This document shows, one piece after another, positions 4,650 through 41,724 of a stretch of DNA of 64,000 bases; the first letter of the stretch is position 1, and each line of letters begins with the position of its first letter. The notes beneath the pieces are model-generated. The model searched no databases. It was not told where the DNA came from and saw only the letters and a list, made by a program, of their open reading frames with translations. The position numbers were made by a program, and so were the translations under genes. The DNA comes from Parcubacteria group bacterium. GTDB lineage: Bacteria > Patescibacteriota > Minisyncoccia > Phycocordibacterales > Zambryskibacteraceae. The stretch is from positions 217,567 through 281,566 of the forward strand of contig JAQBRH010000004.1 in the NCBI GenBank assembly GCA_028286565.1, in the 5' to 3' direction.

Positions 4650-4655
4650 GTATCT

Positions 4656-27681: not shown

Positions 27682-27776
27682 CACTTCGACTCACTTCGTT
27701 CGCTCAGTGTAAACACTGGGCGAATTAGGTATGAGGAGAAGTACCCTGAGCTTGTCGAAGGGCATATAATTAATCC

Positions 27777-28031
27777 ATGGGTTGGTATGTATATATTGCC
27801 AAAGCAAGGACCGGACACTATTACGTCGGAATAACTACAGATCCAGATTCTAGAATAATTAAGCATAATTCTGGGCAGGGTTCTCAGATGGCAAAACAGC
27901 AAGGCCCATTCGAATTGATGTATCGATCAAAAGATTTGGGTAGTAAATCTGTGGCGCGCAAGAGGGAAGTTCAAATAAAAAAGTGGACTAAGGAAAAGAA
28001 AGATAGATTAATAAATGGTGAATGGGCCTAA
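27777..28031 (+). CDS. GIY-YIG nuclease family protein (YhbQ/UPF0213-like)
   Basis: WYVYIAKARTGHYYVGITTDPDSRIIKHNSG is a GIY-YIG core. 84 aa. TATAAT lies 8 nt upstream of the ATG. Confidence 0.7.
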   Translation: MGWYVYIAKARTGHYYVGITTDPDSRIIKHNSGQGSQMAKQQGPFELMYRSKDLGSKSVARKREVQIKKWTKEKKDRLINGEWA

Positions 28032-28061
28032 TTTGTGTTAAAAAGATATGGTTTCTCTAAT

Positions 28062-28134
28062 GGTGGCTATGGTGTAACGGTTAACACTCGAGCTTGTGGA
28101 GCTTGCAATCAGGGTTCGATTCCCTGTAGCCACC
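28062..28134 (+). tRNA. tRNA-His (anticodon GTG, with extra 5' G-1)
   Basis: G-1 + acceptor GTGGCTA/TAGCCAC, anticodon stem CGAGC/GCUUG with loop UUGUGGA, T-arm CAGGGTTCGATTCCCTG. Confidence 0.85.
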
Positions 28135-29721
28135 CCTAATGTTTCTTATTCTAATAGTGTCCCTAAAGGATTTATTCTTTTGGGCAAACATCCTTTCATG
28201 AGGGACGGGTTTGTGCTTGTTGCTGAAGCATATGGTCCCTGAGGCCACCAAAGCCTCAATTACAGGGCTTGGAACTGCCGTGACGAGTTTCCGGTTAGCC
28301 ACCTCAAAACGTTCCCAGAATAGGCTTATGTAGATCCTCTTAAGCTCTGGTGGAGCCTCCTGGTAGGACTGACCTATATTCTTGGCAAGGTGAACTATCT
28401 GCTGGATTGTGTCCACTTTGATGTTCCTGCTTTTCTCAAGTTTTATCAGCTCCTCGTCGCAAGTGTAGATTGCTTCTCGCTGCTTAAGTTTGATCCGAGT
28501 GAAGTCGCTATCATCTAGAATGCCGGAGACAAGTTTTTCTTCCGCCACAGCAAGCTTCTGTTCCGCACTAGACTTAACAGCAAGAATCTTTCTTTTCTCT
28601 CGGATAACATCTCGCTTTTTTAGATCATATATAAACTGCACACGGGTAAGTAGCTTTTCAATAAATTCTGGCGAGAATTCAATGCCCGTGAATAGCTCCT
28701 CAACAGCTATCTCAATATCAGCTGCTCTGACGCTGCGATCCTCATCAGAGATGATTCCAGGCTTTTGTTTACTTGTAAGATATGGACGGTAATAGGTCTT
28801 GTCTTTCTTCGGATGAGTTTCTCCTATAAAGCGGAGTCCGCTTACTGAGGAGAATATATATCCCCGCAAGAGGAAGTCGTATTTTCTTCTTCTGCAGGCG
28901 TGGTGATTATGGTCATCGCAGACCTCTTGGCAACGATCAAAGATGTCTTTGGTCGTGAGTGGGGGATGTTTGCCGATTTGCTCCATCTCCCTCCAACGCA
29001 TAATGCCGTAATAGAATGGATTGCGGATAAGTCGTAGTAGATTCGCAACGCTGAGCATCCCGCCAGTTCTCGACACAAGTCCTTTCTTCTTGAGTTCCTC
29101 ACCAAGCTCGAGCATGGAGTAAGAACCGGTTGAATATCTTTGAAAGAGTTCGGTTATAAGAGAACCCTTCATTTCATCCAGAATAATTATTCTCTTGTCT
29201 GGGTTGTCTGGTGCTCCGGCATTGAGATATCCGACAGGAACTTTGGTAACCCACCAGCCATCTCTGAACCTCTGCTCCATACTTTTAATAGTTTTCCTTG
29301 AGGTAATCTGTGACTGGTACTGGTTAATCAACGCTATAACGCCATCTTGCACTTCGCCCTCAATTGATTCATCAAGGCCAGGTTGATTTACCGAAATAAG
29401 CTTTACCCCTTTCCGTTTCAGAAGTGCTTTGATTGAAAGATGATCAAGCATATTTCTCGCAAGTCTATCGGTGTCGAGAACGTATACTGCACCAACCCTT
29501 TCATCTTCTTGAACACGTACAAGCAGTTCTTGTAGTGCGGGTCTGTTGGTATTCCTCGCTGTTTTTCCTAGGTCTTTGTAGACTCCATCCTCAGCCAACT
29601 CATATTCCGTACTGGCTAAGATTGCCTTCTTTGAGAGATCAAGCTGCGTCTGGATAGAGTATCGACCCTCACCGGCCTGTTCCTCAGTAGAAACTCTGCA
29701 GTAGATAAGGGCCTTTTCCAT
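28081..29721 (-). CDS. Large serine recombinase (site-specific integrase)
   Basis: N-terminal resolvase domain ALIYCRVSTEEQ (catalytic Ser), a recombinase domain and a Cys-rich zinc ribbon (CDDHNHHACRRRKYD). 546 aa. The last ~18 codons are antisense to tRNA-His, so the true stop is uncertain. Confidence 0.85.
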   Translation of the reverse strand: MEKALIYCRVSTEEQAGEGRYSIQTQLDLSKKAILASTEYELAEDGVYKDLGKTARNTNRPALQELLVRVQEDERVGAVYVLDTDRLARNMLDHLSIKALLKRKGVKLISVNQPGLDESIEGEVQDGVIALINQYQSQITSRKTIKSMEQRFRDGWWVTKVPVGYLNAGAPDNPDKRIIILDEMKGSLITELFQRYSTGSYSMLELGEELKKKGLVSRTGGMLSVANLLRLIRNPFYYGIMRWREMEQIGKHPPLTTKDIFDRCQEVCDDHNHHACRRRKYDFLLRGYIFSSVSGLRFIGETHPKKDKTYYRPYLTSKQKPGIISDEDRSVRAADIEIAVEELFTGIEFSPEFIEKLLTRVQFIYDLKKRDVIREKRKILAVKSSAEQKLAVAEEKLVSGILDDSDFTRIKLKQREAIYTCDEELIKLEKSRNIKVDTIQQIVHLAKNIGQSYQEAPPELKRIYISLFWERFEVANRKLVTAVPSPVIEALVASGTICFSNKHKPVPHERMFAQKNKSFRDTIRIRNIRGGYRESNPDCKLHKLEC

Positions 29722-29722
29722 A

Positions 29723-29989
29723 TTAGGTTCTTAGTTTTCTCAGTGAATCGATACGCACCTGGTCTGCTTCTAGGAAGGGGACTACTCGTCGATTTTTAAT
29801 CGCTGTGAGTTGATCAATCAGAACATTAATCTCGTTTGCCGATGAGGTCTTATTCTCTATAGCTTTATCCGCTCTTTCTCGAACAAGTTTGGCGTTCTTC
29901 TTTGCTCTTGGAAGTGTAAGTAGAAGCATCAGGAATCCGATTGACACAAACAGGCCCACCACGAGGAATATGAAGATGATTATTAGCAT
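29723..29989 (-). CDS. Small membrane-anchored coiled-coil protein, hypothetical (coupled to integrase start)
   Basis: TM helix MLIIIFIFLVVGLFVSIGFLMLLL, then a charged helical tail. Its stop abuts the integrase ATG. Confidence 0.4.
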   Translation of the reverse strand: MLIIIFIFLVVGLFVSIGFLMLLLTLPRAKKNAKLVRERADKAIENKTSSANEINVLIDQLTAIKNRRVVPFLEADQVRIDSLRKLRT

Positions 29990-30252
29990 GAAGGGAGTAA
30001 CAAGCGGTTAATCCCTTGGTGAGATACAAAAAGCCCACCACGGGTAGAGCCCGAAGGCTCTCGTACCAGTTTCCCGATACGGCAGGTCATGCGACCCCAT
30101 GATGGGTTCTTTGAGCACGACCTGACTTTGAACCATGCCTTTGGATTGCTCCAAAGGGTTAGGTTCCCAACTGTTCCCAGCTGTAAGTTAATTATGCCTA
30201 ATTTCATGGTTTTTGCTATAAGTGATCATTCCGCCCATATATGTCTTTAAAT

Positions 30253-30301
30253 TGCCGATGACTGCCGATAAGAGTCCTAAAACTAGCAATGACTAGCAAT
30301 G
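30253..30301. promoter_or_regulatory. Cluster of short tandem direct repeats (TGCCGATGAC-TGCCGATAAG; ACTAGCAATG-ACTAGCAATG), a candidate operator between the RHH gene and the integrase operon
   Basis: Seen directly at 30253-30272 and 30282-30301; both sets share the ATGACT core. Confidence 0.45.
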
Positions 30302-30312
30302 AGGGAGTCTGG

Positions 30313-30513
30313 CTACATGATTTCTGGTAATGATTCGTCCTGGTACTGCTCTATAATTTTTCGGTGCTTTTCTTGGTTAAATAGCTCTTCTAGTGCCTCG
30401 CTCACTATCTCGCTCATGGTCTTATTAAGATAAGTGGTGGCGATCTTACATAGGCGATGAGCTTTTTTGCTTACCCTTATTTGCCTTACGTAGCTAACTT
30501 GTCGATTTGTCAT
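30313..30513 (-). CDS. Ribbon-helix-helix (CopG/Arc-like) DNA-binding protein, putative regulator
   Basis: RQIRVSKKAHRLCKIATTYLNKTMSEIVSEALEELF is a beta-strand-helix-helix pattern. 66 aa. Confidence 0.5.
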   Translation of the reverse strand: MTNRQVSYVRQIRVSKKAHRLCKIATTYLNKTMSEIVSEALEELFNQEKHRKIIEQYQDESLPEIM

Positions 30514-30737
30514 TTTCTTATGCTTTTGGCTTCTATCTCCCTCATAGCTTTTAAGAGAGGCTATTAATTATTTGGCGGACAGAATGCTACTGTTTCCAAC
30601 CAGTCAAGGTTCTCCTAGGTCCTTGAATTTTTGTCTGGCGAAACGATCACATGTGTTCTTCCTGATGTGCAGGTGAGGTCCCCCGTTGAGAAGCCATTAC
30701 TCAGAGCGGGGACTTGCATCCGCACACCAACAAGTTT

Positions 30738-30911
30738 TCAGCCCAAGTTTTTCAAGAGATGTGCTGACAGCTCTTTCTGCTCACTATGGTTAATCGAAGT
30801 CTTTTCTATCTGAAGAAGAAATAGTTCTGCCAACTGATCAATGAAAAGGTTCTCAGATTTCTCTGTTTTTTCTTTTCTATTGGTCTTTTTAATGGCTTGA
30901 TACTTTTTCAT
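30738..30911 (-). CDS. Small hypothetical protein (uncertain)
   Basis: 58-67 aa helical ORF between the RHH and Zn-ribbon genes. No recognisable domain. Confidence 0.25.
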   Translation of the reverse strand: MKKYQAIKKTNRKEKTEKSENLFIDQLAELFLLQIEKTSINHSEQKELSAHLLKNLG

Positions 30912-31028
30912 ACAACAAAAAAGACCCAGCCAGGAAACCAAACAGGGGTGTTTAGTTACTTGGCTGGGTCCTCTAAGTTCTTGCGAACTTCTATATAACC
31001 CGCACTTCAGCTATGAATGTTCTACGAC

Positions 31029-31280
31029 TTAAATGCTATTCTCTATCTCGCTCTCTGTCAAATCTGCTGTAAACACCCCCTCATTGGGACCAAAGCGGAT
31101 CACCTTCATGCCACCCTCAGTATCTTTTCTAGGTGGATAAACAATAGATATCGTGTGGCATTTCGTGCATCTTATTTTTCTGATATTTTTCTCTCCAAGG
31201 TGTGAGTCGCCCATATAGTGTGCACAGTTCGTGCAGATAATTCTCTTGACCCCGTCTTTATTAAAAGTTTTCTGTTTCAT
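31029..31280 (-). CDS. Zinc-ribbon protein (CxxC-x17-CxxC), hypothetical; immediately downstream of the KAP NTPase
   Basis: CTNCAHYMGDSHLGEKNIRKIRCTKCH. 83 aa. Confidence 0.5.
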   Translation of the reverse strand: MKQKTFNKDGVKRIICTNCAHYMGDSHLGEKNIRKIRCTKCHTISIVYPPRKDTEGGMKVIRFGPNEGVFTADLTESEIENSI

Positions 31281-31305
31281 AAATTGATTATAAATTAATC
31301 AGTAT

Positions 31306-33576
31306 CTAGTACATAGGGTCATTTCTTTTTGGAAAATCTTTCTTGAAGAGTGATATTGCATCTTTTTGATTGTCGGGCAGTTTATCTAATTTCACTTTAT
31401 CTATTGTGGTTTTGATGTAATCGAGATCAAAAAATTCTTTGAGTGATGAAAATGATATTCTCGGTATTTGTTCAGTAATCATGCCAGATGATCTGAGAGA
31501 TATTGTTTTAAACTTTGATACAAACTCAGCCAAAGCAAGTCTGCTCTTTTTATAAGTATTAACAAAAGTCCTCATATCTTTTTCACCACCCCATTCCTTC
31601 CATCTATATAAAATGTAGACAAGGTTTTCTTGTTTTTTTAGAGATCCGTCTTTATATGCTTTATTTATTTTCTTAAGACCTTCCTTCGATAGCTCTGTTA
31701 TTTCTAGATTATCAAATAATTTTTCTCGGCCGGAAGATTCTTTTTCAGGTCTGGGGAAGTACGAGGAAATAAGGTGGATAGCCCCATATAAGGATTTAGT
31801 TTTTCGGATAGCTTCTCTGCTCGGTTCAAATATGGAAATTTCCCTATCTTTCAATGATTTTAGATAGAAATGGATTACCCTCATAAGATCTGTCTCGGCT
31901 CCGAAATCAAACATCTGATGGGACTTTATACCTGACACCTCATCTGCAATATCCAATAGAACAGTTAAGGTCTGAGCGATCTTATTTCCCTCGGTAGGGA
32001 ATTCTTTTACGTGATCTAGGATCGTAGTGAGAAACTTCCTGATGTCTTTCTTCTTGTCTTGAGTTTTGAGATAGCCGTGCAGCAGAGCAGAAAATTGTTT
32101 GTAGTCTCTAACTTTTTCTAGTGCTGAAGTAATCTCAGACGACCGCATCTCACCCTCAGGGACATTCAAGAAGAAGTAGGTATCAAAATGATCAGCTGAA
32201 CAAATCCTTCTATTCTGCCGCCACTCTTGTTCAATGGTATCGCCCATTGAGTAGTTCTCGAGCACCGATTTAAGGGGAGGGAAGAGTTCGACAAGAAAAT
32301 CTTTAATAAATGGATCAACTTTAACTAACTCAATTCCAATATTTTTCCTTATTTCATCAAGCCTTTTTGATTGATAGTCTCTATGATGGTTTAGCGTAGT
32401 GAACTCCTCTTTATTGTTAGATATGTAATTGTATAAATCAGGATAGAAGTGTTCGAGGGTTCTTATTCCGAGAAAATCAACAGGATCCACCTCGCTTGAT
32501 ATTAAGCTTGCCGCCATCGTCATTTGGCTCAGTGGCCTCTTGATTATTCTGAGATTCCCTCTTTTAAGAAAAGCTTTACCTAAGCCAGAATGATATAGTG
32601 TTGCCCATCTATTTTTATCCCATTTGCTTTCGGAGAAAAACTTTATCAGTTCGTCTAATTGAGCGAATAAGAATTCAGACAATTTTTTGTCATCAGCTTT
32701 TGGAAGCGAGATGGGAATTTGCACAATTTTCTCAATATATTCCATTCCCTCAATACCGTCCTTACTTATCATTTTTCCTACGGTGCCTACGTCCATAACC
32801 ATAAGATATATAAGATTTGGAAGATCTAAATTGATTTTTACTAGTTGGAATAGATTTCTTACCTCCTCCGGCGTGAGACGATCTATATCATCTATAATGA
32901 ACAGAATTTTGCGATCTCTTTTAGATAAAGTCTCTCTAATATCATTCTTTAGTTGGTTAAGCGTTTTCTCTGTTAAAGAAGATTTTTTCTTATAGAAATC
33001 CTCAGCCATAGATACAAGCCCTTCGATAAAGGTAAGAGATTCTAAAATTAAAATAAGAATTATTGTTCCTACGTAGGCGATAGGGCTAAATGCAAAAATT
33101 TTATCTAGTATCACAACTCCCGTAAGCCCAAGAATTGGGAGCCATAGCCTGATAATAGGAAGAAAAGCTTTGTCTTTGATTTTAGTTATTGTTCCTAAAT
33201 ACAATTTTACAAGACCAAGCTGCCTAGCTATTTCCTTGTCTATTTCATTATTTTTCTGTCCCAGCTCTTTACCAACCTCTAATAGAAAATTCTGGACCAA
33301 GTCTCCTTGGTTGGAGAATATCCAAGGGTTAAACTCTATAATTGTTGGGATCTTGTCCTGATCGATATCCTCCTCAAATTTATCAGGGTGATTATAAAAA
33401 TCTTTAATGAAATTGACGACAGAGGTCTTTCCATCACCCCATTTTGCATATAAACCAATTACAAGACTGTCGGAGTCCTTCCAAGATAGGATGTCTTTTG
33501 CGATACGCTTAGCAAAGCCTTTTCGGCCAAGGAGGTCTTCCTCAACTGTCTCTACCGCTTTATCAGAAAAAGCCAT
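31306..33576 (-). CDS. KAP-family P-loop NTPase (membrane-inserted NTPase domain)
   Basis: Walker A GLYAKWGDGKTSV, two TM helices inserted after the P-loop (LPIIRLWLPILGLTGVVIL / IAYVGTIILILILESL), Walker B ILFIIDDIDRL, and a long helical C-terminus. 756 aa. Confidence 0.8.
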   Translation of the reverse strand: MAFSDKAVETVEEDLLGRKGFAKRIAKDILSWKDSDSLVIGLYAKWGDGKTSVVNFIKDFYNHPDKFEEDIDQDKIPTIIEFNPWIFSNQGDLVQNFLLEVGKELGQKNNEIDKEIARQLGLVKLYLGTITKIKDKAFLPIIRLWLPILGLTGVVILDKIFAFSPIAYVGTIILILILESLTFIEGLVSMAEDFYKKKSSLTEKTLNQLKNDIRETLSKRDRKILFIIDDIDRLTPEEVRNLFQLVKINLDLPNLIYLMVMDVGTVGKMISKDGIEGMEYIEKIVQIPISLPKADDKKLSEFLFAQLDELIKFFSESKWDKNRWATLYHSGLGKAFLKRGNLRIIKRPLSQMTMAASLISSEVDPVDFLGIRTLEHFYPDLYNYISNNKEEFTTLNHHRDYQSKRLDEIRKNIGIELVKVDPFIKDFLVELFPPLKSVLENYSMGDTIEQEWRQNRRICSADHFDTYFFLNVPEGEMRSSEITSALEKVRDYKQFSALLHGYLKTQDKKKDIRKFLTTILDHVKEFPTEGNKIAQTLTVLLDIADEVSGIKSHQMFDFGAETDLMRVIHFYLKSLKDREISIFEPSREAIRKTKSLYGAIHLISSYFPRPEKESSGREKLFDNLEITELSKEGLKKINKAYKDGSLKKQENLVYILYRWKEWGGEKDMRTFVNTYKKSRLALAEFVSKFKTISLRSSGMITEQIPRISFSSLKEFFDLDYIKTTIDKVKLDKLPDNQKDAISLFKKDFPKRNDPMY

Positions 33577-33654
33577 AAGGCCATACTACATGAGGAGTTT
33601 GGAATTACCACACGCAAGCTTCTCTTTTGTTCTATCGAGGTATATTCTGGCTAT

Positions 33655-33966
33655 ATGAAAAAGGTTGTTGTATATGTGCCCCTAACCCACACCGATCAAG
33701 TTCGGGAGGCTATCGGGCAGGCTGGAGGCGGGCAGCTCGGGAAGTACGCCTTCTGTAGCTTCTCTACACGGGGTATAGGGCGTTTTAAGCCTCTGGAAGG
33801 GGCTAACCCTCATATTGGCTTTGTGGGTCAAATGGAGGCTGTAGAGGAAGAAAGAATCGAGGTTTCCGTGGAAGATAGTCTGGTGGAGAGTGTGATATCC
33901 GCCATTAAAAAGGTACATCCGTACGAGGAAGTGGCTTTGGACATATATAATTTAGAGCAAGTATGA
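33655..33966 (+). CDS. Small PII/CutA-like (Nif3 C-terminal-like) protein
   Basis: 103 aa. The C-terminal HPYEEVALDIYNLE resembles the Nif3/CutA HPYE(E/V)P motif, with a beta-alpha-beta pattern. The call is tentative. Confidence 0.4.
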   Translation: MKKVVVYVPLTHTDQVREAIGQAGGGQLGKYAFCSFSTRGIGRFKPLEGANPHIGFVGQMEAVEEERIEVSVEDSLVESVISAIKKVHPYEEVALDIYNLEQV

Positions 33967-34595
33967 AAATCACCAAACTTGGTCATTGCTGCCTACTGCT
34001 AGAAACTAAGGGCCAGAGAATTCTTACAGACCCAGGTAGCTATACCGTAGACGCACATTCTCAACTCACAAACGTCGATTACATTTTGTATACCCACGAG
34101 CATCAGGATCATTACCACCTTGAGTCATTGAAAGTGCTTATTGGAAAAAATCCACAAGCAATTATCTACACTAATGATTCCGTAAGTGAGCTTCTTACCA
34201 AAGAGGGAATAGCTCACACGCTTGTCCGGAACGGAGAAGCGGTATCTCTCGGGGAAATTTCTGTGGTTGGTATTGGTGAAGAACACGCCCAAATGCACAG
34301 CTCGATACCTTTATCGTCCAACATTGGTTTCCTAATTGATGAGAGATTATGGTATCCAGGCGATGCCTTCACTAATCCAGAAAGAGAGATAGAGATCCTC
34401 GCCCTTCCCGTGTCTGGCCCGTGGATGAAGATAGGTGAGGCAATAGATTACGCATTTCTTCTTAAGCCTAAAAAAGCTTTTCCGGTTCATGATGGTACAC
34501 GTTTTGGATCTGCACATAATCTCCCCGCGAAGCTTCTTCCGGCGAATGGCATCGAGTTTGTAGTAATGGCTGAGGGTGACAGCAGGGAATTCTAA
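33963..34595 (+). CDS. Metallo-beta-lactamase-fold hydrolase
   Basis: HEHQDH (HxHxDH) zinc motif, a downstream His, and the WYPGD...PVHDG motif. Confidence 0.75.
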   Translation: MKITKLGHCCLLLETKGQRILTDPGSYTVDAHSQLTNVDYILYTHEHQDHYHLESLKVLIGKNPQAIIYTNDSVSELLTKEGIAHTLVRNGEAVSLGEISVVGIGEEHAQMHSSIPLSSNIGFLIDERLWYPGDAFTNPEREIEILALPVSGPWMKIGEAIDYAFLLKPKKAFPVHDGTRFGSAHNLPAKLLPANGIEFVVMAEGDSREF

Positions 34596-34608
34596 TATAA
34601 TCAAAACC

Positions 34609-35295
34609 ATGACTGAACTTGAAAGGAATTTCCAAAAATTTAAGAAGATTACAAGAGAAGAGTTCTTTATTGCTGAAGAAATTAAAAAGCATGTTGAGAT
34701 TAAAGATACTGATACGATTTTGGATGTCGGCTGTGCTGATGGTAATCTCTCAAAGTCATTAACTAAAGACTCAACAAACATTACATTTCTAGATGTTGAT
34801 GAGTTTAATTTCTCTCCTCAGGAGAAATTTATCCGCTCTTCGTTTGAGGAGGTAGAGTTAGGCGAGAAGTTTGATCTGATTTTAAGTTCGCATGTCTGGG
34901 GACACTTCTACAGGAACAACACCTTTGGTTTCTGCTTTAAGAAAGCCCATGATCTGCTCAAAGAAGGCGGAAAGCTGATCGTGGTGCATAACTCTAATAA
35001 AGACTTTACCGGGAAGCTCATCGAATTCTCGAAGACATTATTCGATCAAATAGAGTTCGATGTCTTTCTCGATGAGTTCTTAGAAGGTGCAGATTATGAG
35101 GAATCCTACTTCGATGTGAATTTGAAAGCGGAAACATTCAGAGAACTGGCAGAACTTGTCCAGGTATTATTGGTTGTTCCAGATGCTATCTATTACTCGA
35201 AGATCGAAGAGATGACCCGCTTCTTAGAAGCTAATCTGGAAAAACCGGAGTTCGCTATTAATCAAAGACTTTTAGTAATAAAGAAGAAAGGTTAG
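34609..35295 (+). CDS. Class I SAM-dependent methyltransferase
   Basis: Motif I ILDVGCADGNLS. I chose the ATG at 34609, 7 nt after a TATAAT box; the ORF-track start at 34576 is in frame and overlaps the upstream gene. Confidence 0.7.
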   Translation: MTELERNFQKFKKITREEFFIAEEIKKHVEIKDTDTILDVGCADGNLSKSLTKDSTNITFLDVDEFNFSPQEKFIRSSFEEVELGEKFDLILSSHVWGHFYRNNTFGFCFKKAHDLLKEGGKLIVVHNSNKDFTGKLIEFSKTLFDQIEFDVFLDEFLEGADYEESYFDVNLKAETFRELAELVQVLLVVPDAIYYSKIEEMTRFLEANLEKPEFAINQRLLVIKKKG

Positions 35296-35312
35296 GCGAA
35301 TGAGGCTATAAA

Positions 35313-36206
35313 ATGACTTACGACAATAATTGGTTCAAACAACGGGCTCTTAATTCTTTCCGCAGGATAGGTCCTAACGTCTGGGATTATTCTGATTCTT
35401 TACTTCTTTATATTTCTTCAGGAGTGGAGAAATACGAATCTCTACAAGAGGAGGATACTCCTTATTTTAAGTTAGTGATTAAACCAGAACGCGAATATTT
35501 AGAATCAATAGCAAAGGATGTTATTAACGCCTTACCTTCGAATTTTGAGTATGTTGATCTTGGTCCAGGCACTGAACACAAGGAACAATTCTTTTTCGAT
35601 GAGCTTAAGAAGCAGGGGAAGAAGTTTACTTATATTCCTGTAGATATTAGCGAGCATTACCTCAAGCTGGCTGAACAACACGCTATCGATCAAGGCATTC
35701 CTGTCAGCACAATACAGTCTTCTTTTGAAGAAGCGGCTGAAGTATTAGGAGAAGGAAGCGTGCCACGCTTTGTAAATATTGGGCTCACTTTCTCTAACTA
35801 TGAACCTCAGGTAATTCTAAAACTACTTAAAACTATTGCAGGCAAGGGAGGGTTCGTTTTTATCAATAGCCAAATGAGAGATAGGTTAGATATAAATAGT
35901 TTACAACGAGTATATGCAGAAGATGCTTTGACTTTGGCGGACGATAAACTCAAGCTAGTCGGTTTAGATCCTAATGCTGATGTGACCCCAAGAAAAGCAG
36001 ATGATGCTATTAAGGTATGGTGTTCAGTTATTAAGCCCTCTCTCGATCTTGAGACGATTGGAGTTGTGGAGGGCGATAAATTGCTTGTTTTTCAATCCCT
36101 CCGATATACACCAGAGAAGCTTAAGGAAGAACTAGAAAAAGCTTCGGAGAACTATCAAGTGTTTGATACAGGTGCTTCTTTCATTGCTGGGTTAATCAAA
36201 ACCTAA
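35313..36206 (+). CDS. EgtD-like (Methyltransf_33/DUF323) SAM-dependent methyltransferase
   Basis: YVDLGPGTEHKEQFFFDEL, YIPVDISEHYL and NIGLTFSNYEP resemble the EgtD-family motifs (ELGSGSSxKTR, VPVDVS, GSTIGN). Confidence 0.5.
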   Translation: MTYDNNWFKQRALNSFRRIGPNVWDYSDSLLLYISSGVEKYESLQEEDTPYFKLVIKPEREYLESIAKDVINALPSNFEYVDLGPGTEHKEQFFFDELKKQGKKFTYIPVDISEHYLKLAEQHAIDQGIPVSTIQSSFEEAAEVLGEGSVPRFVNIGLTFSNYEPQVILKLLKTIAGKGGFVFINSQMRDRLDINSLQRVYAEDALTLADDKLKLVGLDPNADVTPRKADDAIKVWCSVIKPSLDLETIGVVEGDKLLVFQSLRYTPEKLKEELEKASENYQVFDTGASFIAGLIKT

Positions 36207-36447
36207 ACCAAAGCAGGGAAGGAGGAAATAAAATCCAGCTTCTCTTTTACTCCTTCCAGGTATATTCTGTCGGAGAAGATATCCAGAATAATTTTCCTAT
36301 CGGGACCCAAATTTGCGAAGCTAATTTGGCGTAGGCTACAGGGAATCGAAAGACGGAGGCGCGAAGCCGATCCAGCAGGATCGCAGCCGAGTCGGGGTCG
36401 CGGAAATTTTCTGCCGAAAATTATCCGTGCCCGATGAACCCCTTATT

Positions 36448-36531
36448 CTGTAGCCACCCAAATTTTTAGGCCTATAAATAAAGGTAGTTTTTGGTACCCA
36501 GATGGGGATTAGAACCTGATATACTCACAAG
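36448..36531 (+). repeat. Cassette boundary/promoter module R1 (att-like CTGTAGCCACCC + ACCCAAATTTTT + GATATACT -10 box 6 nt before the ATG)
   Basis: It is related to R2 at 38172-38276 (~80% identity over 75 bp). Confidence 0.55.
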
Positions 36532-37248
36532 ATGAAAGAGGATATTTATTTTGAAAGTGGAAGTCTTAAACTTGTTGGCACTTTATATAAAGCGCCTAAG
36601 GAGAAAGCCTCAGCGCTTTTAATTGCAGGAGGGGGGAACACCCATCGACACAAAGGATATTATCCTCCGTGGCAAAACTTTCTTTTGGAGAACGGAGTCA
36701 CAACATTCAACTTTGATTTTCGAGGGGTAGGAGATGCAGAAGGAAATTTAAATGAAAGCAATCTAAATACAAGAGCAGAAGATGCGAAAGCTGCCCTTGA
36801 AATTCTGAAGCAACATTCTGATACAGAAAATATATTTGTAGTCGGTGTAAGCATGGGCGGGCCTGTGGCGATAAGGATAGTAGATCATTCAATTAAAGGA
36901 ATGCTTCTGGTTGTTGCCGCTGCATATTCAATGGAAGCGCGAGATAAGAATTTTGGCCCCGAGTTTTCAGAAGCGATACGAAAACCAGACAGCTGGAAAG
37001 ATTCACCTGATTTTAAAGACTTAGAGAGATACATGGGCGACACATTTTTGCTATATACGGATAGTGATGAAGTAGTTCCTCAGGGTATAAGTTTGAACTA
37101 CGAAGAGATCATAAAAGCAAAAGGGGGACAGGTGCTTGCCCTTAAGGATGCCAACCATCGAACCTGGAAGGAAGGGCAACAAGAATATGCCTTAAGGGAG
37201 ATGTCGAATTTTATCCTTGAGAAGAGCCTATCAAAGGTATACTCATGA
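36532..37248 (+). CDS. Alpha/beta-hydrolase fold protein
   Basis: Nucleophile elbow GVSMGG, then a downstream Asp and His (DSDEVV...ANH). 238 aa. Confidence 0.7.
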   Translation: MKEDIYFESGSLKLVGTLYKAPKEKASALLIAGGGNTHRHKGYYPPWQNFLLENGVTTFNFDFRGVGDAEGNLNESNLNTRAEDAKAALEILKQHSDTENIFVVGVSMGGPVAIRIVDHSIKGMLLVVAAAYSMEARDKNFGPEFSEAIRKPDSWKDSPDFKDLERYMGDTFLLYTDSDEVVPQGISLNYEEIIKAKGGQVLALKDANHRTWKEGQQEYALREMSNFILEKSLSKVYS

Positions 37249-37625
37249 GTATGATAAGTTTCATTTTAAATCTTCCTTGGACTATTCTCGGTGTATTGGC
37301 AGGGATTGTGTCGATACCTAAAAAGTTTCAAGGCAATAAAAATCCTTTCGCTTTAGTATTTACTGTAAAAAGTTTCTGGTGGTATACATGGCAACCCAAG
37401 ATGAGGGGAGCGCGAGCTATGACGATAGGGCATGTGGTTCTTTTGAGCCCAAATATTTTGGAGCACGATCTAGAACATGAACTTATACACGTAGAGCAAG
37501 CTGTGCGTATTCCACTTATACATCCAGTTCTCTATGCAATCGAAAGTTTTAGGAAGGGCTATCGAGAGAATAAATACGAAAAGGAAGCTTATGGTAGGGC
37601 AGGAAACATTTATATAGAAAAATGA
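37245..37625 (+). CDS. Small membrane-anchored HExxH zincin-like protein (paralog A)
   Basis: N-terminal TM, WWYTW, then LEHDLEHELIHVEQ (HExxH plus a downstream Glu). Its start overlaps the upstream stop (ATGA). Its 3' ~360 bp are ~98% identical to 38918-39275. Confidence 0.6.
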   Translation: MSMISFILNLPWTILGVLAGIVSIPKKFQGNKNPFALVFTVKSFWWYTWQPKMRGARAMTIGHVVLLSPNILEHDLEHELIHVEQAVRIPLIHPVLYAIESFRKGYRENKYEKEAYGRAGNIYIEK

Positions 37626-38173
37626 CTGAAAAAGAAATTCTCAAGCTTATCCAAGAGGACTCATGGATGATGGAGACTTTACGTAAAGCAGAAAGTTTGA
37701 ATTTAAAAGATTGGGCTATTGGAGCGGGATTCATTCGAAATAAGATTTGGGATCACCTTCATGGATATACGGAAAGAGAATGGGGGAGCAGCGATGTGGA
37801 TCTGGTCTATTTTGATGAAGATGATAAGGGTGAGGAATATGATGAGAAGTTGTCTGAGAAGTTAAAGAGTGAGACAGGGACCAATTGGGAAGTGGTAAAT
37901 GAGCACCATGCTCACGTATGGAATAAGATTCCGCCTTACACTTCCGTTGAGGATGCAATTTCAAAGTTCCCTGAGACTGTAACCGCTATAGGTGTTCGCA
38001 TAAGAAATGAAGAAATAGAACTGATTACACCCTATGGAATTGAAGATAACGTGAGCATGATCATCCGACCAACGCCCATATTTGAAGACAAGATGGATAA
38101 GATCCGTGAGAGGGTGGCAAAGAAGGGTTGGATGGAAAAATGGCCTAAACTAAAGTATGCGGAGACCGAATAA
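37622..38173 (+). CDS. Nucleotidyltransferase-fold protein (minimal NTase, PF06042-like)
   Basis: GAGFIRNKIWD...SSDVDLVYFD, i.e. the G[GS] and DxD motifs of the Pol-beta superfamily. It is translationally coupled to the HExxH gene (ATGA overlap). Confidence 0.55.
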   Translation: MTEKEILKLIQEDSWMMETLRKAESLNLKDWAIGAGFIRNKIWDHLHGYTEREWGSSDVDLVYFDEDDKGEEYDEKLSEKLKSETGTNWEVVNEHHAHVWNKIPPYTSVEDAISKFPETVTAIGVRIRNEEIELITPYGIEDNVSMIIRPTPIFEDKMDKIRERVAKKGWMEKWPKLKYAETE

Positions 38174-38276
38174 AGTTCTAAACCCATCCACCCACCGACC
38201 CAAATTTTTTCAGGGCTATAAATAAGGTTAGTTTTTGCTACCCAGATGGGAATTTAGAAATGATATACTGAATTCT
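38172..38276 (+). repeat. Cassette boundary/promoter module R2 (AGTTCTAAACCCATCCACCCACCGACCCAAATTTTTT...GATATACT)
   Basis: Shares the AGTTCTAAACCCATCC boundary with R3, and the ACCCAAATTTTT..TATAAATAA..GTTAGTTTTTG..TACCCAGATGGG block with R1. Confidence 0.55.
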
Positions 38277-38810
38277 ATGAAAAGATTTTCAATCGTGATT
38301 CTTGTTCTCGTAGGTTTGAGCGCGGGTTACTGGTATAAAACCGGACATGTCGCACTGCAACCGGCGCTGTGGAAATCTGTTTGGATAGGTACAACGTACC
38401 CCCCGCTCTCTAATGGATTGTCTAGCAACGGCGCGCTCACAGTTGGAGACGCAAGATATGCCACATATGTTATAGACGAGATGAAAACTCCAGACGGCAC
38501 CGAACTATGGTTAGCAAGCATGGTAAAGGGAGTGAACGGAAAGCCTATTTTTACCGTTACTGACGCCCTACCTTTTTTCTCTGGCGCTGATGAAAACGGA
38601 AATATGTCGATTTGGGGAGTATGCGGTTATTCGCCTGACAAAGTACTTAATATCGATAATTCAATTGTCGCTCAGATAAGTGCCAGAGACTATGTATCCA
38701 GTGGGCCCATTAATGCAAAGAAAGCATGGAAGGCGAATAATGCCACTGGAAAATTTGAGTCGATTCCGCCAGTAGGAATCTCCTGTATTAATGAAGGAGG
38801 GCAGGAGTGA
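38277..38810 (+). CDS. Membrane-anchored/secreted hypothetical protein
   Basis: Start at MKRFSIVILVLVGLSAGYWYK, an anchor resembling that of gene 40405. No domain recognised. Confidence 0.45.
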   Translation: MKRFSIVILVLVGLSAGYWYKTGHVALQPALWKSVWIGTTYPPLSNGLSSNGALTVGDARYATYVIDEMKTPDGTELWLASMVKGVNGKPIFTVTDALPFFSGADENGNMSIWGVCGYSPDKVLNIDNSIVAQISARDYVSSGPINAKKAWKANNATGKFESIPPVGISCINEGGQE

Positions 38811-38830
38811 TAAAACACTCCCTTCATTCG

Positions 38831-38900
38831 AAACTAGTTCTAAACCCATCCGCCCGACGACCCGGTTTTCAATCTGTCGACCCAGGGGTATACTCTGAGT
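38831..38900 (+). repeat. Cassette boundary/promoter module R3 (AGTTCTAAACCCATCCGCCCGACGACCCGGTTTTCAATCTGTCGACCCAGGGGTATACT)
   Basis: Nearly identical to R4 at 40349-40404; the TATACT box lies 6 nt before the ATG. Confidence 0.55.
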
Positions 38901-39275
38901 ATGATAAGTTTCGTTTTAAATCTTCCTTGGACCATTCTTGGTGTATTGGCTGCTATTGTTTCAATGCCTAATAAGTTTCGTACTAACCCGAGCCCTTTCG
39001 CTTTGGTATTTACTGTAAAAAGTTTCTGGTGGTATACATGGTTACCAAAGAGGAAAGGAGCACGAGCCATGGCGATAGGGCGTGTGGTTCTTTTGGGCCC
39101 AAATATTTTGGAGCACGATCTAGAGCATGAACTTATACACGTAGAGCAAGCTGCGCGTATTCCACTTATACATCCAGTTCTCTATGCAATCGAAAGTTTT
39201 AGGAAGGGCTATCGAGAGAATAAATACGAAAAGGAAGCTTATGGTAGGGCAGGAAACATTTATATAGAAAAATGA
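38901..39275 (+). CDS. Small membrane-anchored HExxH zincin-like protein (paralog B)
   Basis: MISFVLNLPWTILGVLAAIVSMP...LEHDLEHELIHVEQ. The C-terminal half is nearly nucleotide-identical to paralog A. Confidence 0.6.
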   Translation: MISFVLNLPWTILGVLAAIVSMPNKFRTNPSPFALVFTVKSFWWYTWLPKRKGARAMAIGRVVLLGPNILEHDLEHELIHVEQAARIPLIHPVLYAIESFRKGYRENKYEKEAYGRAGNIYIEK

Positions 39276-39829
39276 ACGAAGATCTTGTTTACATCGACCA
39301 ATACGGCCTCCTTGGTAGTAATTTCTATTGGCACCATAGAGCGGATAAGGGACTGTCTGATCAAGATCTGATCGAAGCCGAACTGACTAATGATCGAGTG
39401 TTGGTGCACAGAGATATTATCGATAAATTAATTTCGATAGATAAAGAATTCCAGAAGAGGGGGTATAGGCTCTATATCAAAGAAGGATACCGTTCAAAAA
39501 AGCTCTACGAGATGATCTACAAGCGACGGGTAGAAATGTTCGGCAAAGAGGAAACAGATAGACTCTTGAACATGAAGGATATGCCGCATTCTTTTGGCAA
39601 GTCTATTGATGTATCCCTGAGAGATATTACCGGTACAGAAGAAGTGCCAATGCGTAACAAGGCGGATGGGACCGGTGCTTTATTTATTAATTTCTATAAA
39701 GGCAAGGAAGACGAACAAAGTAAGAAGTATCAAGAGCTGCAAGATTTTGTGCTTTCAGTAATGCGTGCTCATGGATTTAAGCTTGGAACTAAGAACGAAT
39801 ATTTCCACTTTGATCACAAAGAGTTCTAA
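39272..39829 (+). CDS. Peptidase M15 (VanY/D-Ala-D-Ala carboxypeptidase-like, LAS zinc-binding) family protein
   Basis: PHSFGKSIDVS (H-x2-G-x-S-I-D) and EYFHFDH (second His), as in VanX/VanY. It is coupled to the HExxH gene (ATGA overlap). Confidence 0.55.
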   Translation: MNEDLVYIDQYGLLGSNFYWHHRADKGLSDQDLIEAELTNDRVLVHRDIIDKLISIDKEFQKRGYRLYIKEGYRSKKLYEMIYKRRVEMFGKEETDRLLNMKDMPHSFGKSIDVSLRDITGTEEVPMRNKADGTGALFINFYKGKEDEQSKKYQELQDFVLSVMRAHGFKLGTKNEYFHFDHKEF

Positions 39830-39865
39830 ATTCATCTCCGCGGGGGTATACTTCTTCTCAATCAT

Positions 39866-40333
39866 ATGGATGTACACGTAAGGCGATCTAGGAACGGGCA
39901 GGGCATTTTTGCAAATAGAGATTTTTCTGCACAAGAAGTTATATATGAAGTGAAAGGAAAATTGATCACATGTGGCGAAGATGAGGATATCGATCAGAGG
40001 GTCCGGGATAATACATTTAGATTCGACAAAGAGAAATATCTAAGTCCGGAAGGCGAATTGGGCGATTTCCAGAATCATTCGTGCGAACCGAATGCCGGAG
40101 TTTTCAAAAGTAAGAAAAAACTTTTTATTAAGGCGATTAAAAATATTAAAGAAGGCAAAGAGATCCTTATAGACTATTCCACGATCCTTGCTACAGACGA
40201 CACCTGGACGATGAAATGTAATTGCGGAAGCGCAAACTGCAGGGGGATCATAAAGAAATTCAAGAATATACCAAAAGTAACCAAAGAAAAGTATCTCGCC
40301 TTAGGTATTGTCCCAGAGTACATCTTAAATTAA
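39866..40333 (+). CDS. SET-domain protein (putative protein lysine methyltransferase)
   Basis: NHSCEPN, EILIDYS (ELxxDY) and the post-SET Cys cluster CNCGSANCRG. It has its own GGGGGTATACT promoter box at 39842-39852. Confidence 0.75.
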   Translation: MDVHVRRSRNGQGIFANRDFSAQEVIYEVKGKLITCGEDEDIDQRVRDNTFRFDKEKYLSPEGELGDFQNHSCEPNAGVFKSKKKLFIKAIKNIKEGKEILIDYSTILATDDTWTMKCNCGSANCRGIIKKFKNIPKVTKEKYLALGIVPEYILN

Positions 40334-40348
40334 GGCGGCCCTCATTTC

Positions 40349-40404
40349 ATCATCCGTCCGACGACCCGGTTTTCAATCTGTCGACCCGGGGGTATACTTT
40401 AGGC
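40349..40404 (+). repeat. Cassette boundary/promoter module R4
   Basis: CATCCGTCCGACGACCCGGTTTTCAATCTGTCGACCCGGGGGTATACT; 52 of 55 nt match R3. Confidence 0.55.
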
Positions 40405-40977
40405 ATGAAAAAACAACAAGGATTTGCCACCCCCCTTACGCTGGGGTTACTAGTAGTTTTGCTTGTGGGAGGGGGGTATTATTGGATGAATCACAGGTCT
40501 TCTTCGAATTCTCCGGCCAAGACGCTCAGCATAACCGCCTCGGACTGGAGCACCTACAAATGGATGGGAATCGAACCGACGCATATTTCCTTTGCAGAGG
40601 CGGCGACTCCCGCTCTTGCCATCACGGGGTGGAAAGGTTTTGTGGATTTTAATTCAGACGGTCCGGCGGGGAACCTGAGAGTTGAAACTTTTCAAAAAAC
40701 AAATTCTGAAAAGGACTTTCCTTCATATGTAGCGGCCAACATGGGGATCTTTGAGTCAGTGAAGTTTTTCCAAGTCGCGGGCCACGATGCAGCAAGGATA
40801 CGACACGCATCCAAAGATCAATACGACGCGGACGTCGCCTGGTACTTCATAGATGCGGGCGATAAGTCTATCATTGCCATCTCTACCAGCGGAGACAGCA
40901 TGTATCTCTACGACGATGATCAAAACGGCATGTCATCAAGGGATAGGTACATCGCCGGGTACCAGCCTGCGAAGTAA
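40405..40977 (+). CDS. Membrane-anchored/secreted hypothetical protein
   Basis: N-terminal anchor LLVVLLVGGGYYW, then a soluble domain with no recognised fold. 190 aa. Confidence 0.45.
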   Translation: MKKQQGFATPLTLGLLVVLLVGGGYYWMNHRSSSNSPAKTLSITASDWSTYKWMGIEPTHISFAEAATPALAITGWKGFVDFNSDGPAGNLRVETFQKTNSEKDFPSYVAANMGIFESVKFFQVAGHDAARIRHASKDQYDADVAWYFIDAGDKSIIAISTSGDSMYLYDDDQNGMSSRDRYIAGYQPAK

Positions 40978-40983
40978 CCTGAT

Positions 40984-41148
40984 ATGAGGAAACTCCAATG
41001 GACCCAGGTCACGTGGTATTCCAAACTCGCCACCATTATTTTGCTGATGGGCGCCTTTCCGGCCCTGGCCTTCTATATAGGAACCCAATACGAAGAGACA
41101 ATGCTTGCCACTACTCAGGAACAATATATTGACATTTCGAACATTTAA
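40984..41148 (+). CDS. Small (54 aa) single-TM protein; paralog of 45895..46095
   Basis: LQWTQVTWYSKLATIILLMGAFPALAFYIGTQYEE versus IKWNDITWYSITISGVFFLILLPSIIFYIGNQYKE. It is below the ORF-track size cutoff. Confidence 0.4.
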   Translation: MRKLQWTQVTWYSKLATIILLMGAFPALAFYIGTQYEETMLATTQEQYIDISNI

Positions 41149-41205
41149 GGTAGTATAAAACAAGACCTCGTACTGCGAACGTCCCTTAGAAACAGGAGCT
41201 CTCTC

Positions 41206-41583
41206 ATGTTTGCTCAGTTCTATCAACGGGTACGCTTTGCCGCAGCGGTTCTGATCGTGCCCTGTGCAGTCTCTCTGCTTTCTCTTCTGACCTTTCACTT
41301 CAGCAGCATCCTCGGATGCCTGGTGACGATCGCAGCAAGCCTCTTCGGAGCATTGATGGTGATCTCTGAGGAGGATAGAGACGGACGTATCAGCCTGGCG
41401 TACATCGTTTGGCTCGTGGCTGGTATCGTGATGACGACGGCGTTCTTCTTCCTTCATCCCTCCTACTCATACGCCTACTTTACGGTCGTAGTAGCATTCG
41501 GGGTGTGGAGTTTCGCCATTCTCATGTATCTCGCCGACAAGGTCCGGCAGATCCCTGTCCGGAGCCCCAGTCCGAAGTTCTGA
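41206..41583 (+). CDS. Hypothetical 4-TM membrane protein
   Basis: 125 aa with four hydrophobic segments. Confidence 0.45.
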   Translation: MFAQFYQRVRFAAAVLIVPCAVSLLSLLTFHFSSILGCLVTIAASLFGALMVISEEDRDGRISLAYIVWLVAGIVMTTAFFFLHPSYSYAYFTVVVAFGVWSFAILMYLADKVRQIPVRSPSPKF

Positions 41584-41724
41584 TCGCCATTGCATAAGCT
41601 CTGGCATTTTTTATATCAAAAAAGAGGTGAAATAATTTTTGAATCCCCGATGTACTAATAGATGAAGCTCGGATGCTCACTGCAAACGGCCTCACCATGG
41701 TTGTTATTCGCTAACGTACAATTT

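Follow-up and report, generated by a model that had tools for sequence, protein, structure and literature searches.

The window analysed here, a stretch of 64,000 nucleotides from the genome of a Parcubacteria group bacterium, contains foreign DNA between 28136 and 40404, next to a tRNA-His gene. This DNA is organized in two layers. Layer A (28136-36459) carries the gene of a large serine recombinase (LSR) and layer B (36460-40404) is an array of short gene cassettes. In the account developed below, which we hold with good confidence, layer A is an intact LSR element at tRNA-His, standing beside an older foreign block, layer B. The target gene, the recombinase and the features found at the distal end of the element are as follows.

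28063-28136, + strand: tRNA-His(gtg), the integration target (Rfam 60.9 bits); identical (100%, 76 nt) to the unoccupied gene of contig L088
28081-29721, − strand: LSR of 546 aa with PF00239 and PF07508 domains; its last 56 nt lie inside tRNA-His
36237-36269, + strand: second copy of the operon promoter module (85% to 33617-33649), geneless, pointing across attR
36292-36314, + strand: degenerate attR-junction copy (17/23 match to TTATTCTGTAGCCACCCAAATTT)
36334-36350, + strand: inverted 17-nt copy of the tRNA-His T-loop/acceptor, GGCTACAGGGAATCGAA
36351-36447, − strand: P arm of attP, alternative LSR C-terminal tail of the excised form (GC-rich; from the reconstruction and from homology to L174/L175 and L019)
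36448-36460, + strand: attR core, displaced original tRNA 3′ end (CTGTAGCCACCC plus A; CCA encoded, as in L088)

The composition of the region clearly sets it apart. Over 28-40.4 kb the GC content is 0.36-0.46, against 0.50-0.59 (about 0.53) in the flanks, and the GC content at third codon positions (GC3) is 0.33-0.50 in the 19 scored island genes (28081-40333), against 0.56-0.68 in the flanking genes. The right edge of the GC3 profile is sharp and lies at 40334-40404. The trinucleotide signatures of the host DNA on the left and on the right correlate at 0.99, and those of layers A and B correlate with the host at 0.58 and 0.63, respectively. Layer A correlates at 0.93 with the island of L082, one of the related loci described below, and at 0.78 with layer B. 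By this signature, A and B belong to one mobile pool that is distinct from the host. An independent Logan assembly, L001, is 100% identical to the window over the right junction (39246-41964), so that this junction is not a binning artefact. The flanks carry housekeeping genes (L19, a pseudouridine synthase, RuvB, PolA, Fpg, aminoacyl-tRNA synthetases, PilM and seven other tRNAs), and a protein identical to the window recombinase is present at NCBI in a metagenome-assembled genome labelled 'Parcubacteria group bacterium'.

The original prediction, made from the letters of the sequence, had described an AT-rich island with a compositional break, an opposite-strand LSR running into tRNA-His and a 12-bp repeat of the tRNA 3′ end at 36448. 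All three descriptions hold, the open reading frame (ORF) of the LSR indeed reaching 56 nt into the tRNA gene. The attL core corresponds to the last 12 nt of tRNA-His (28124-28135). This 12-mer, CTGTAGCCACCC, is found exactly twice in the 64 kb, at 28124-28135 and at 36448-36459, and these two copies mark attL and attR. By chance, a given 12-mer would recur within 15 kb with a probability of about 0.001. At its 3′ end, tRNA-His now carries sequence brought by the element, GCCACCCCT. The displaced end at attR reads GCCACCCA, with an encoded CCA, and the unoccupied gene of L088 reads identically. An inverted 17-nt copy of the tRNA had also been reported at 36334-36350. It is present, GGCTACAGGGAATCGAA being the reverse complement of tRNA positions 28115-28131, and an 18-nt tRNA probe with at most 3 mismatches gave 2 matches against 0.03 expected. 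This copy is internal to the LSR element, being placed where the alternative tail ends and not at an element boundary; in the reconstructed circular form, it gives the LSR ORF its stop codon (FDSL*). The motif ACCCAAATTT, for which three occurrences had been claimed, does occur three times, at 36305, 36456 and 38198, the coordinates first given being off by 1-2 nt. Finally, the orphan promoter at 36237 would transcribe across attR or, in the circle, antisense to the tail.

It may be asked whether the repeat at 36448 is truly the end of the element. A single LSR element of 12.3 kb may be imagined, with its true attR at about 40.4 kb and the repeat at 36448 being internal or due to chance. This would be in keeping with the low GC that runs unbroken to 40404 and with the correlation of 0.78 between A and B, and an 8-mer, GCCACCCC, occurs at 40426-40433, near the compositional edge. 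Such a model is, however, highly improbable. The 8-mer is located within the coding sequence of a gene of host composition, and the chance of such a match is about 0.2 for an 8-mer within 12 kb, versus about 0.001 for the 12-mer. Moreover, the remnant at 36448-36460 reproduces the native, CCA-encoding end of L088, and the P-arm/tail homology described next is found exactly to the left of 36448, as predicted by the attP reconstruction.

The LSR of layer A contains a Resolvase domain (PF00239, 83.2 bits, residues 4-155), with the motif IYCRVSTEEQ and with R9, S11 and Q15 invariant among 20 homologues, followed by a Recombinase domain (PF07508, 45.6 bits, residues 187-267). Its best NCBIfam similarities are to CcrB, CcrC and XisF. 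The PF13408 zinc ribbon gave no match in the LSR. In the alignment, S/S/P/I are found (residues ~290-325) where homologues show C..C...C...C. All four zinc-ribbon cysteines are replaced in P0001-P0005 and P0007 too, and they are kept in other homologues. A zinc-ribbon fold without zinc may persist.

The C-terminal end of the protein depends on the state of the DNA. In the integrated form, the final 18 codons (GGYRESNPDCKLHKLEC) are read from the tRNA in antisense. When 36459 is joined to 28136, the ORF grows by about 40 codons, running through 36447-36337. The P-arm stretch is similar among the window, the tail of L175 and a remnant in L019 (TDNFRQKIS, VTNNFAKQN and RTGFAKKND, respectively), and this similarity assigns 36351-36447 to the P arm, 36448-36459 to the attR core and 28136-36459 to the element. 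Protein ends were then classed among the 120 best LSR homologues. Antisense-tRNA peptide ends (RG[GA]YRESNP..HKLQC, where H is the complement of the GTG anticodon) are carried by 51 of the 120, and 32 others stop at the junction. The conserved un-recombined tail, VVEDVRTVFERRNDATIYIP, was recognized by regular expression in five, with P0015, P0017 and P0030 being tail-like by eye. Two pairs of close homologues are instructive. P0077, with the tail, and P0057, with a tRNA-coded end, are 93% identical and split exactly after DTVWGA; for P0030 and P0018 (83% identical), the split falls exactly after TTTQLR. Since near-identical homologues have different ends, lineages occur in public data in both the attP and the attL states. 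In the tail-form loci L174 and L175, no tRNA is found beside the LSR gene, and in L175 the antisense tRNA-His end, GGGGTGCC, is still present where the tail starts. The two tails differ largely synonymously (AGA versus CGT for Arg, for instance), which shows that the tail is protein-coding.

LSRs cut DNA with a 2-bp stagger and swap the half-sites of attP and attB; excision by attL × attR recombination needs a directionality factor (PMC3783163). In the mechanism that we propose, the LSR would have recombined attP with the 3′ end of tRNA-His, the crossover taking place within the 12-bp identity CTGTAGCCACCC. The attP site is located inside the 3′ end of the LSR's own gene. The element would supply a replacement tRNA 3′ end at attL, and the original CCA-encoding end would have been moved to attR, at 36448-36460. 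Because attP lies inside the ORF, integration swaps the C-terminal tail of the LSR: the circular form would have a tail of about 40 codons from the P arm (36447 down to 36337), and the integrated form the 18 antisense-tRNA codons. The predicted attP junction is ...CCCCTTATT-CTGTAGCCACCC-CTAATGTTTC... (in longer form, GATGAACCCCTTATTCTGTAGCCACCCCTAATGTTTCTTATTC) and the predicted attB junction is ...GATTCC-CTGTAGCCACCC-AAATTTTTAGG... (in longer form, GGTTCGATTCCCTGTAGCCACCCAAATTTTTAGGCCTAT). Layer A represents an intact 8.3-kb element of a Parcubacteria lineage, with a PifA-like NTPase and a four-gene operon as cargo. Of the points made here and below, the two-layer anatomy, the att repeat, the attP-in-ORF geometry, the two tail states, the tRNA-His junction throughout the family, the LOOT linkage and the unoccupied sites are shown; the catalysis, the activity of the cysteine-less LSR, any regulatory value of the tail swap, the role of LOOT and the assembly of layer B are inferred. 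As for a recombination directionality factor, no candidate was picked out beyond small ORFs, no test aimed at such a factor having been made.

The arrangement at tRNA-His is shared by a family of elements. Seven further independent loci (L002, L003/L172, L004, L082/84, L085-87, L171 and L173), from Buchananbacteria, Paceibacterota and other Patescibacteria, have an LSR of 39-67% identity convergent with tRNA-His, with a 3′-end overlap of 11-56 nt. More distant LSR members adjoin tRNA-Asn (L011, L012) or tRNA-Leu (L019), and in a viral-contig search the LSR relatives were at most 31% identical. As to what these loci carry, the cargo of L173 (1-6441) includes a diversity-generating retroelement (DGR; RVT_1 and bAvd) and an AlwI/D12 restriction-modification system, that of L172 (1086-1951) includes AbiEii, and that of L085 (1006-5003) copper-resistance genes for a P-type ATPase, a CsoR-like protein and a cupredoxin. 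The host flank of L003/L172 contains a group I intron (74 bits) and a fluoride riboswitch (18817-19094 and 20867-20928). In L019, an intact LSR gene (9198-10856) reads through tRNA-Leu(caa). The locus also shows, at 4555-4785, an 18-nt direct repeat of the 3′ end of tRNA-Trp (CGAGTCCCGCCGCCCCTG), 140 nt past tRNA-Trp and enclosing a P-arm-like motif; this tRNA-Trp site is a scar of about 157 nt left by an LSR element, or a miniature element.

Unoccupied sites were obtained as well. One metagenome scan with the 44-nt 3′ half of tRNA-His yielded two contigs, L088 and L089, in which this half is identical and the LSR element is absent. L088 is collinear with the window upstream of the site over its whole 6.7 kb (window ~20.0-28.1 kb), with tRNA-Leu, L19 (83% aa identity to that of the window), the pseudouridine synthase and further tRNAs. 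The homology ends at 28135 and is followed by an unrelated membrane-protein gene. In L089, one small gene follows tRNA-His, and then comes a homologue of the sigma factor encoded at 42168-42800 of the window, about 570 nt from the tRNA. These comparisons clearly point to tRNA-His as the breakpoint, and an exact indel would be located there. The intergenic DNA just upstream of the target holds an insert of its own, a 380-nt stretch of low GC (0.39) between tRNA-Leu(gag) and tRNA-His, at 27683-28062. It contains an ORF (27777-28031, + strand) for an 84-aa stand-alone GIY-YIG nuclease (PF01541, 1.8e-13). As the spacing between tRNA-Leu and tRNA-His is only about 45-50 nt in L088 and L082, the 380-nt insert represents a second, separate insertion at the hotspot.

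Between the LSR gene and the cargo, layer A contains a group of small features on the same strand as the recombinase.

30026-30165, − strand: LOOT small RNA (sRNA; RF03000) with its terminator; Rfam match 30046-30165, full length
30313-30513, − strand: ribbon-helix-helix (RHH)-like protein of 66 aa, candidate regulator; weak RH3_dom match, homologue at the same position in L082
30575-30805, − strand: conserved non-coding region, candidate structured RNA or regulatory region; 76% nt identity, common to L082 and L170

LOOT (RF03000) is a metagenome-derived Rfam family of unknown function (PMC7779021). In the window, it scores 85.5 bits against a gathering threshold of 46.4 and covers model positions 1-121 of 121. 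It has a GCATAAT −10 box upstream and an intrinsic terminator, ACCCGTGGTGGGCTTTTTGT, and is located 305 nt upstream of the LSR, on the same strand. LOOT, with the GCATAAT box and the ACCCGTGGTGGGCTTTTTGT terminator, is also found in L082/83/84, L085-87, L170 and L173. The DNA of the LOOT region is 87% identical between the window and L082, their LSR proteins being only 67% identical. A covariance model built from the five LOOT sequences adds L174, L007 and L009, bringing the count to 8 distinct clade loci. The same model found LOOT in none of 67 distant genome LSR loci and in none of 90 loci of the viral collection (80 LSR and 10 L-motif matches), these 157 distant loci amounting to about 2.2 Mb. 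The LOOT-like RNAs of L007 (8198-8341), L009 (1-142) and L174 (3986-4122) are found 1.7-3.1 kb upstream of LSRs of the clade beside which there is no tRNA. LOOT is therefore linked to this clade of recombinases rather than to tRNA-His as a target. Three loci have it on the opposite strand, at a distance of 1.7-1.9 kb, which argues for an independent sRNA gene rather than an LSR leader. The idea that LOOT might act as a guide RNA in the manner of a bridge RNA was considered and set aside, the longest matches to the att sites being 6-7 nt, no longer than those of shuffles (4 elements). In the literature searched, no function or genomic context was found for LOOT, and it is not discussed in the main text of the paper introducing the 224 motifs.

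The non-coding region of about 230 nt upstream of the RHH-like gene has counterparts at L082 3915-4130 and L170 4000-4225. A long hairpin, GUCCCCG...CGGGGGAC, in which C-G is replaced by U-A in L082, forms part of it, and its consensus fold has 13 pairs with double changes, from only 3 sequences. Region 30575-30805 has no match in Rfam. It may be a second element-specific RNA or a control region. The conserved core of the element consists of the RHH-like gene, the non-coding region, the independently transcribed LOOT and the LSR.

The remaining genes of layer A comprise two small ORFs and the cargo; the latter is accessory, as the original prediction had considered likely, and includes a PifA-like defence gene.

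29723-29989, − strand: membrane ORF of 88 aa, overlapping the LSR start; not kept in related elements
31029-31280, − strand: small ORF of 83 aa with CxxC pairs, possibly a zinc ribbon
31306-33576, − strand: KAP-family P-loop NTPase, PifA-like abortive-infection/defence cargo (PF07693 2.5e-41; PADLOC PifA 8.4e-76, match spanning 7-712/720)
33655-36206, + strand: four-gene cargo operon encoding a P-II-like protein (weak), a metallo-beta-lactamase-fold protein, an S-adenosylmethionine (SAM) methyltransferase and a Methyltransf_33/EgtD-like methyltransferase

The P-II-like gene of the operon shows 80% identity to a gene at the far end of the L082 element.

Several observations weigh against the account given for layer A and its place in the island. 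Contigs L088 and L089 confirm the empty tRNA-His sites that had been expected in relatives, but neither contig is syntenic with the window on both sides, so that they do not demonstrate a clean indel of 12.3 kb. Junctions of an excised or circular form were not observed, and the attP junction is absent from the searched viral contigs. The att sites of LSRs typically span about 40-50 bp and have an imperfect dyad around a 2-bp crossover; no such dyad is visible in the reconstructed attP and attB, the best core-centred symmetry involving 8-9 of 22 positions, near chance. At the distal ends of the related elements, no repeat of at least 10 nt was found in the available flanks. As these distal ends are not located, the 12-nt repeat is documented only here and, as an 18-nt repeat, in L019. 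With the zinc-ribbon cysteines gone, activity of the LSR is not guaranteed. The P-arm tail of the window resembles the conserved tail only weakly. Loci L174 and L175, although un-recombined, are on contigs with host-like genes and hence need not be free circles. Lastly, no tRNA-His att remnant is present at the right edge of layer B, the only candidate being the 8-mer GCCACCCC at 40426-40433. This 8-mer repeats the last 8 nt of the tRNA-His gene in direct orientation, 21 nt after the start of the first gene of host composition and about 25 nt past the compositional edge; it may represent the outermost att remnant or have arisen by chance.

Layer B begins immediately after attR, and all its genes are on the + strand. 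It is composed of the following units.

36461-38173, + strand: cassette 1, with the R1 module (36461-36531), an alpha/beta hydrolase, a 126-aa HExxH membrane protein and an NTP_transf_6 nucleotidyltransferase
38174-38810, + strand: L+R1 module (38174-38276) and cassette 2, a 177-aa predicted secreted/membrane protein starting at 38277
38811-39829, + strand: L+R2 module (38811-38900) and cassette 3, with the second HExxH paralogue and an M15/D-Ala-D-Ala peptidase-like protein
39830-40333, + strand: short L′/R2′ module and cassette 4, a SET-domain protein
40334-40404, + strand: L″+R2 module before the first host-composition gene (40405-40977), the right compositional boundary of the island

Because layer B is outside attR, it adjoined the tRNA before layer A arrived. 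The conserved boundary/promoter modules that had been noticed before the cassettes are real, being repeats of 35-63 nt with 83-89% identity: 38847-38907 matches 40351-40411 (61 nt, 89%), 36463-36525 matches 38207-38269 (63 nt, 83%) and 38167-38201 matches 38829-38863 (35 nt, 83%), with a partial third copy at 39823-39853. An L part (AGTTCTAAAyyyATCC...CGACCC) sits after a stop codon and is joined to an R1 or an R2 promoter part, in the combinations P-arm|R1, L|R1, L|R2, L′|R2′ and L″|R2. The L modules begin with GTTCTAAAC and end with CCACCC or CGACCC. A G[GA]TATACT box precedes each cassette, 6-13 nt from the ATG, so that the cassette mRNAs are probably leaderless; R2 contains a plausible TTTTCA-17-TATACT promoter. 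Across the island, promoter and terminator consensus counts were not above those of shuffles. The L motif is found 3 times in the window, where 0.01 occurrences would be expected. Of the 176 loci fetched, only two match it: L001, which is the window's own sequence, and L176, an unrelated contig of the same sample and of GC 0.38, where the same modules surround a 76%-identical HExxH gene and other cassettes. No tRNA is found in the 5.3 kb of L176. In the viral collection, the L 16-mer gave 10 single matches, about chance level by estimate.

A duplication of 385 bp (37246-37630 and 38896-39280, 88-94%) accounts for the two HExxH paralogues, which are 88% identical in amino acids. The HExxH protein (124-126 aa) is always the first of a two-gene unit with an overlapping start (ATGA), at 37245-38173, at 38901-39829 and at 544-1223 of L176, and its partner varies (NTP_transf_6, M15 peptidase or a 101-aa unknown protein). 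In total, 156 proteins make up this family, all from Parcubacteria/Paceibacterota, and they have no Pfam domain. Two ideas about the modules were tried and rejected. As attC-like hairpins, 1 of 10 folds significantly (L176 module 3, z = −3.8) and module Mb folds weakly, the others showing no fold; terminal inverted repeats are seen in some modules only. As decayed tRNA-His ends, the L modules show a similarity that is marginal and not His-specific.

Several possibilities may be envisaged for the origin of layer B. Most likely, it represents the decayed and reshuffled remains of earlier hotspot acquisitions, rearranged by recombination between repeated modules. It is made of five promoter-led cassettes with their own −10 boxes and with mosaic L/R modules between them, in the absence of a recombinase.

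In a second model, the one put forward in the original prediction, the whole region would result from five or more serial integrations at tRNA-His, each short cassette being one event with an att-like remnant. Successive displaced tRNA fragments would then be looked for, and one clear fragment (36448) and one degenerate copy (36292-36314) are found. By geometry, layer B must indeed predate layer A, and all module breakpoints fall at ...ACCC|, as if arms had been exchanged at a common core. Furthermore, the R1 flank of the displaced tRNA end recurs at 38198, after ...CCGACCC, and the L modules vaguely resemble the segment from the T loop to the CCA, their mean similarity to tRNA 3′ ends exceeding that of shuffles for 4 of 6 modules. 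However, the best tRNA 3′-end matches of the L modules are Val, Pro, Ser or Leu, thus not specific of tRNA-His, and the maxima are not significant for 5 of the 6. The same L/R modules bound cassettes in the 5.3 kb of the tRNA-less L176. No recombinase or recombinase fragment is found in layer B, and the scan of 20 window ORFs of at least 200 aa outside the island gave no tyrosine recombinase. The hybrid attL left by a first event is not a normal LSR substrate (PMC3783163). Finally, the HExxH gene was duplicated as a gene-sized unit with its junction at the −10 box, which fits module-mediated recombination. Cassette-by-cassette integration at tRNA-His is possible for layer B, and serial integration as an account of the whole region is quite unlikely. 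Thus, what stands of the serial view is one LSR integration and at least two temporal layers at the tRNA; one event per cassette, each leaving an att remnant, is not supported, the modules being mosaic, shared with L176 and only marginally tRNA-like, with no second recombinase.

In a third model, layer B would be a block of the chromosome of a Parcubacterium of lower GC, acquired in one transfer by transformation and homologous or illegitimate recombination, the modules being terminator/promoter repeats of the donor. That L176 has the same modules around its 76%-identical HExxH gene, at GC 0.38, and that the HExxH family is confined to Parcubacteria/Paceibacterota would agree with this origin, as would the promoter of R2 and the fact that most modules do not fold. 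Nevertheless, ordinary intergenic regions between non-homologous genes are not 83-89% identical. The mosaic L/R structure and the presence of a module (Me) before a gene of host composition need module recombination, and the place of the block directly beside a tRNA 3′ end is characteristic of entry through an integrase. Such a transfer may therefore be regarded as somewhat unlikely, and the reshuffled remains of hotspot acquisitions as the preferred origin of layer B.

Considering the properties of the family as a whole, a bolder reading may be imagined, although we regard it as unlikely. The LSRs would form a clade specific to the Candidate Phyla Radiation (CPR) in which integration rewrites the C-terminus, the attP-only tail (VVEDVRTVF...) acting as a directionality or expression switch. 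LOOT would belong to the functional core, with a role, for example, in the control of excision, of copy number or of host interaction, and the L/R array would be a cassette-exchange platform at L sites resembling tRNA 3′ ends.

In outline, layer A is an ordinary tRNA-associated island, which departs from known cases by the class of its enzyme, attP within an ORF, the loss of zinc ligands, a conserved sRNA and a neighbouring cassette array. The LOOT RNA, the attP-inside-ORF design and the family-wide conservation go beyond the original prediction. In the description of Islander-type tRNA islands, tyrosine integrases are the catalysts (PMC4383910). As in these islands, the integrase gene is beside the tRNA, the 3′ end is restored, the displaced fragment forms a distal direct repeat, the composition is foreign and the cargo includes accessory and defence genes (PMC4383910). 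Here, in contrast, the enzyme is an LSR, the identity block is only 12 nt and attP is within the integrase ORF. Compared with the LSRs phiC31, Bxb1, A118, CcrB/CcrC and XisF, the enzyme has the same resolvase and recombinase domains, a similar size (~550 aa) and a short att identity; unlike them, it targets a tRNA and not a protein-coding gene, has lost four zinc-ribbon cysteines, has no clear att dyad and has a gene whose 3′ end spans attP, giving integration-state-specific tails. An attP inside a gene is known from the partition of SSV1-type integrases and from the integration-dependent immunity of mycobacteriophage BPs. There too, attP is in coding sequence and the free and integrated forms differ in their C-termini, whereas here the serine integrase keeps all its catalytic and DNA-binding domains and only ~20-40 terminal residues change.

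The nearest ecological analogue appears to be the tycheposons of Prochlorococcus, 27 of 937 of which carry a large serine recombinase (bioRxiv 10.1101/2020.12.28.424599). They are also small cargo elements at tRNA genes, build islands and occur in tandem arrangements. They belong to another phylum; no replication module is seen here, and LOOT and attP within an ORF do not figure in the tycheposon description consulted. The filamentous phage phiRSM has a small serine recombinase, as cited in PMC7192596 (ref. 22). Like the element of layer A, it uses a serine-family recombinase and the 3′ end of a tRNA gene as attB; the enzyme of this Ralstonia phage is, however, of the small resolvase type, with an architecture unrelated to that of the 546-aa LSR. 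The phiRSM target is reportedly tRNA-Ser. For LOOT, the literature searched assigns no genomic context; in the present elements its sRNA gene is bounded by a terminator and stands 0.3-3 kb upstream of the LSRs of one specific clade. Layer B, for its part, resembles integron arrays by its one-directional short cassettes with related boundary elements right after the stop codons. Unlike integrons, it is without IntI, its boundaries are not attC hairpins and every cassette is equipped with its own promoter; its core polarity, GTTCTAA...TTAGAAC, runs opposite to the RYYYAAC...GTTRRRY of integrons.

Two features lie elsewhere in the window. A second, milder GC dip (0.47) at 13-15 kb holds a 366-aa ORF (13612-14712, + strand) with no Pfam domain. 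At 55833-59204 (+ strand), a 1123-aa IleRS-like class I aminoacyl-tRNA synthetase (PF00133 and Anticodon_1) has a His_Phos_1 histidine-phosphatase domain (7e-36) inserted inside the synthetase, at residues 489-642.

The mobile elements of the CPR are poorly described. The present locus brings to light a widespread family in Patescibacteria whose target, the 3′ end of tRNA-His, is precise and can be predicted, a property that could serve genome mining and possibly integration tools. The serine integrase gene spans attP and has two integration-dependent forms, offering a testable route to the control of directionality without a separate factor. The orphan Rfam family LOOT receives its first genomic context, and a family of cassette-boundary repeats is brought to notice. 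More generally, defence cargo moves through these reduced genomes, PifA-like in the window and DGR, restriction-modification and AbiE in its relatives.

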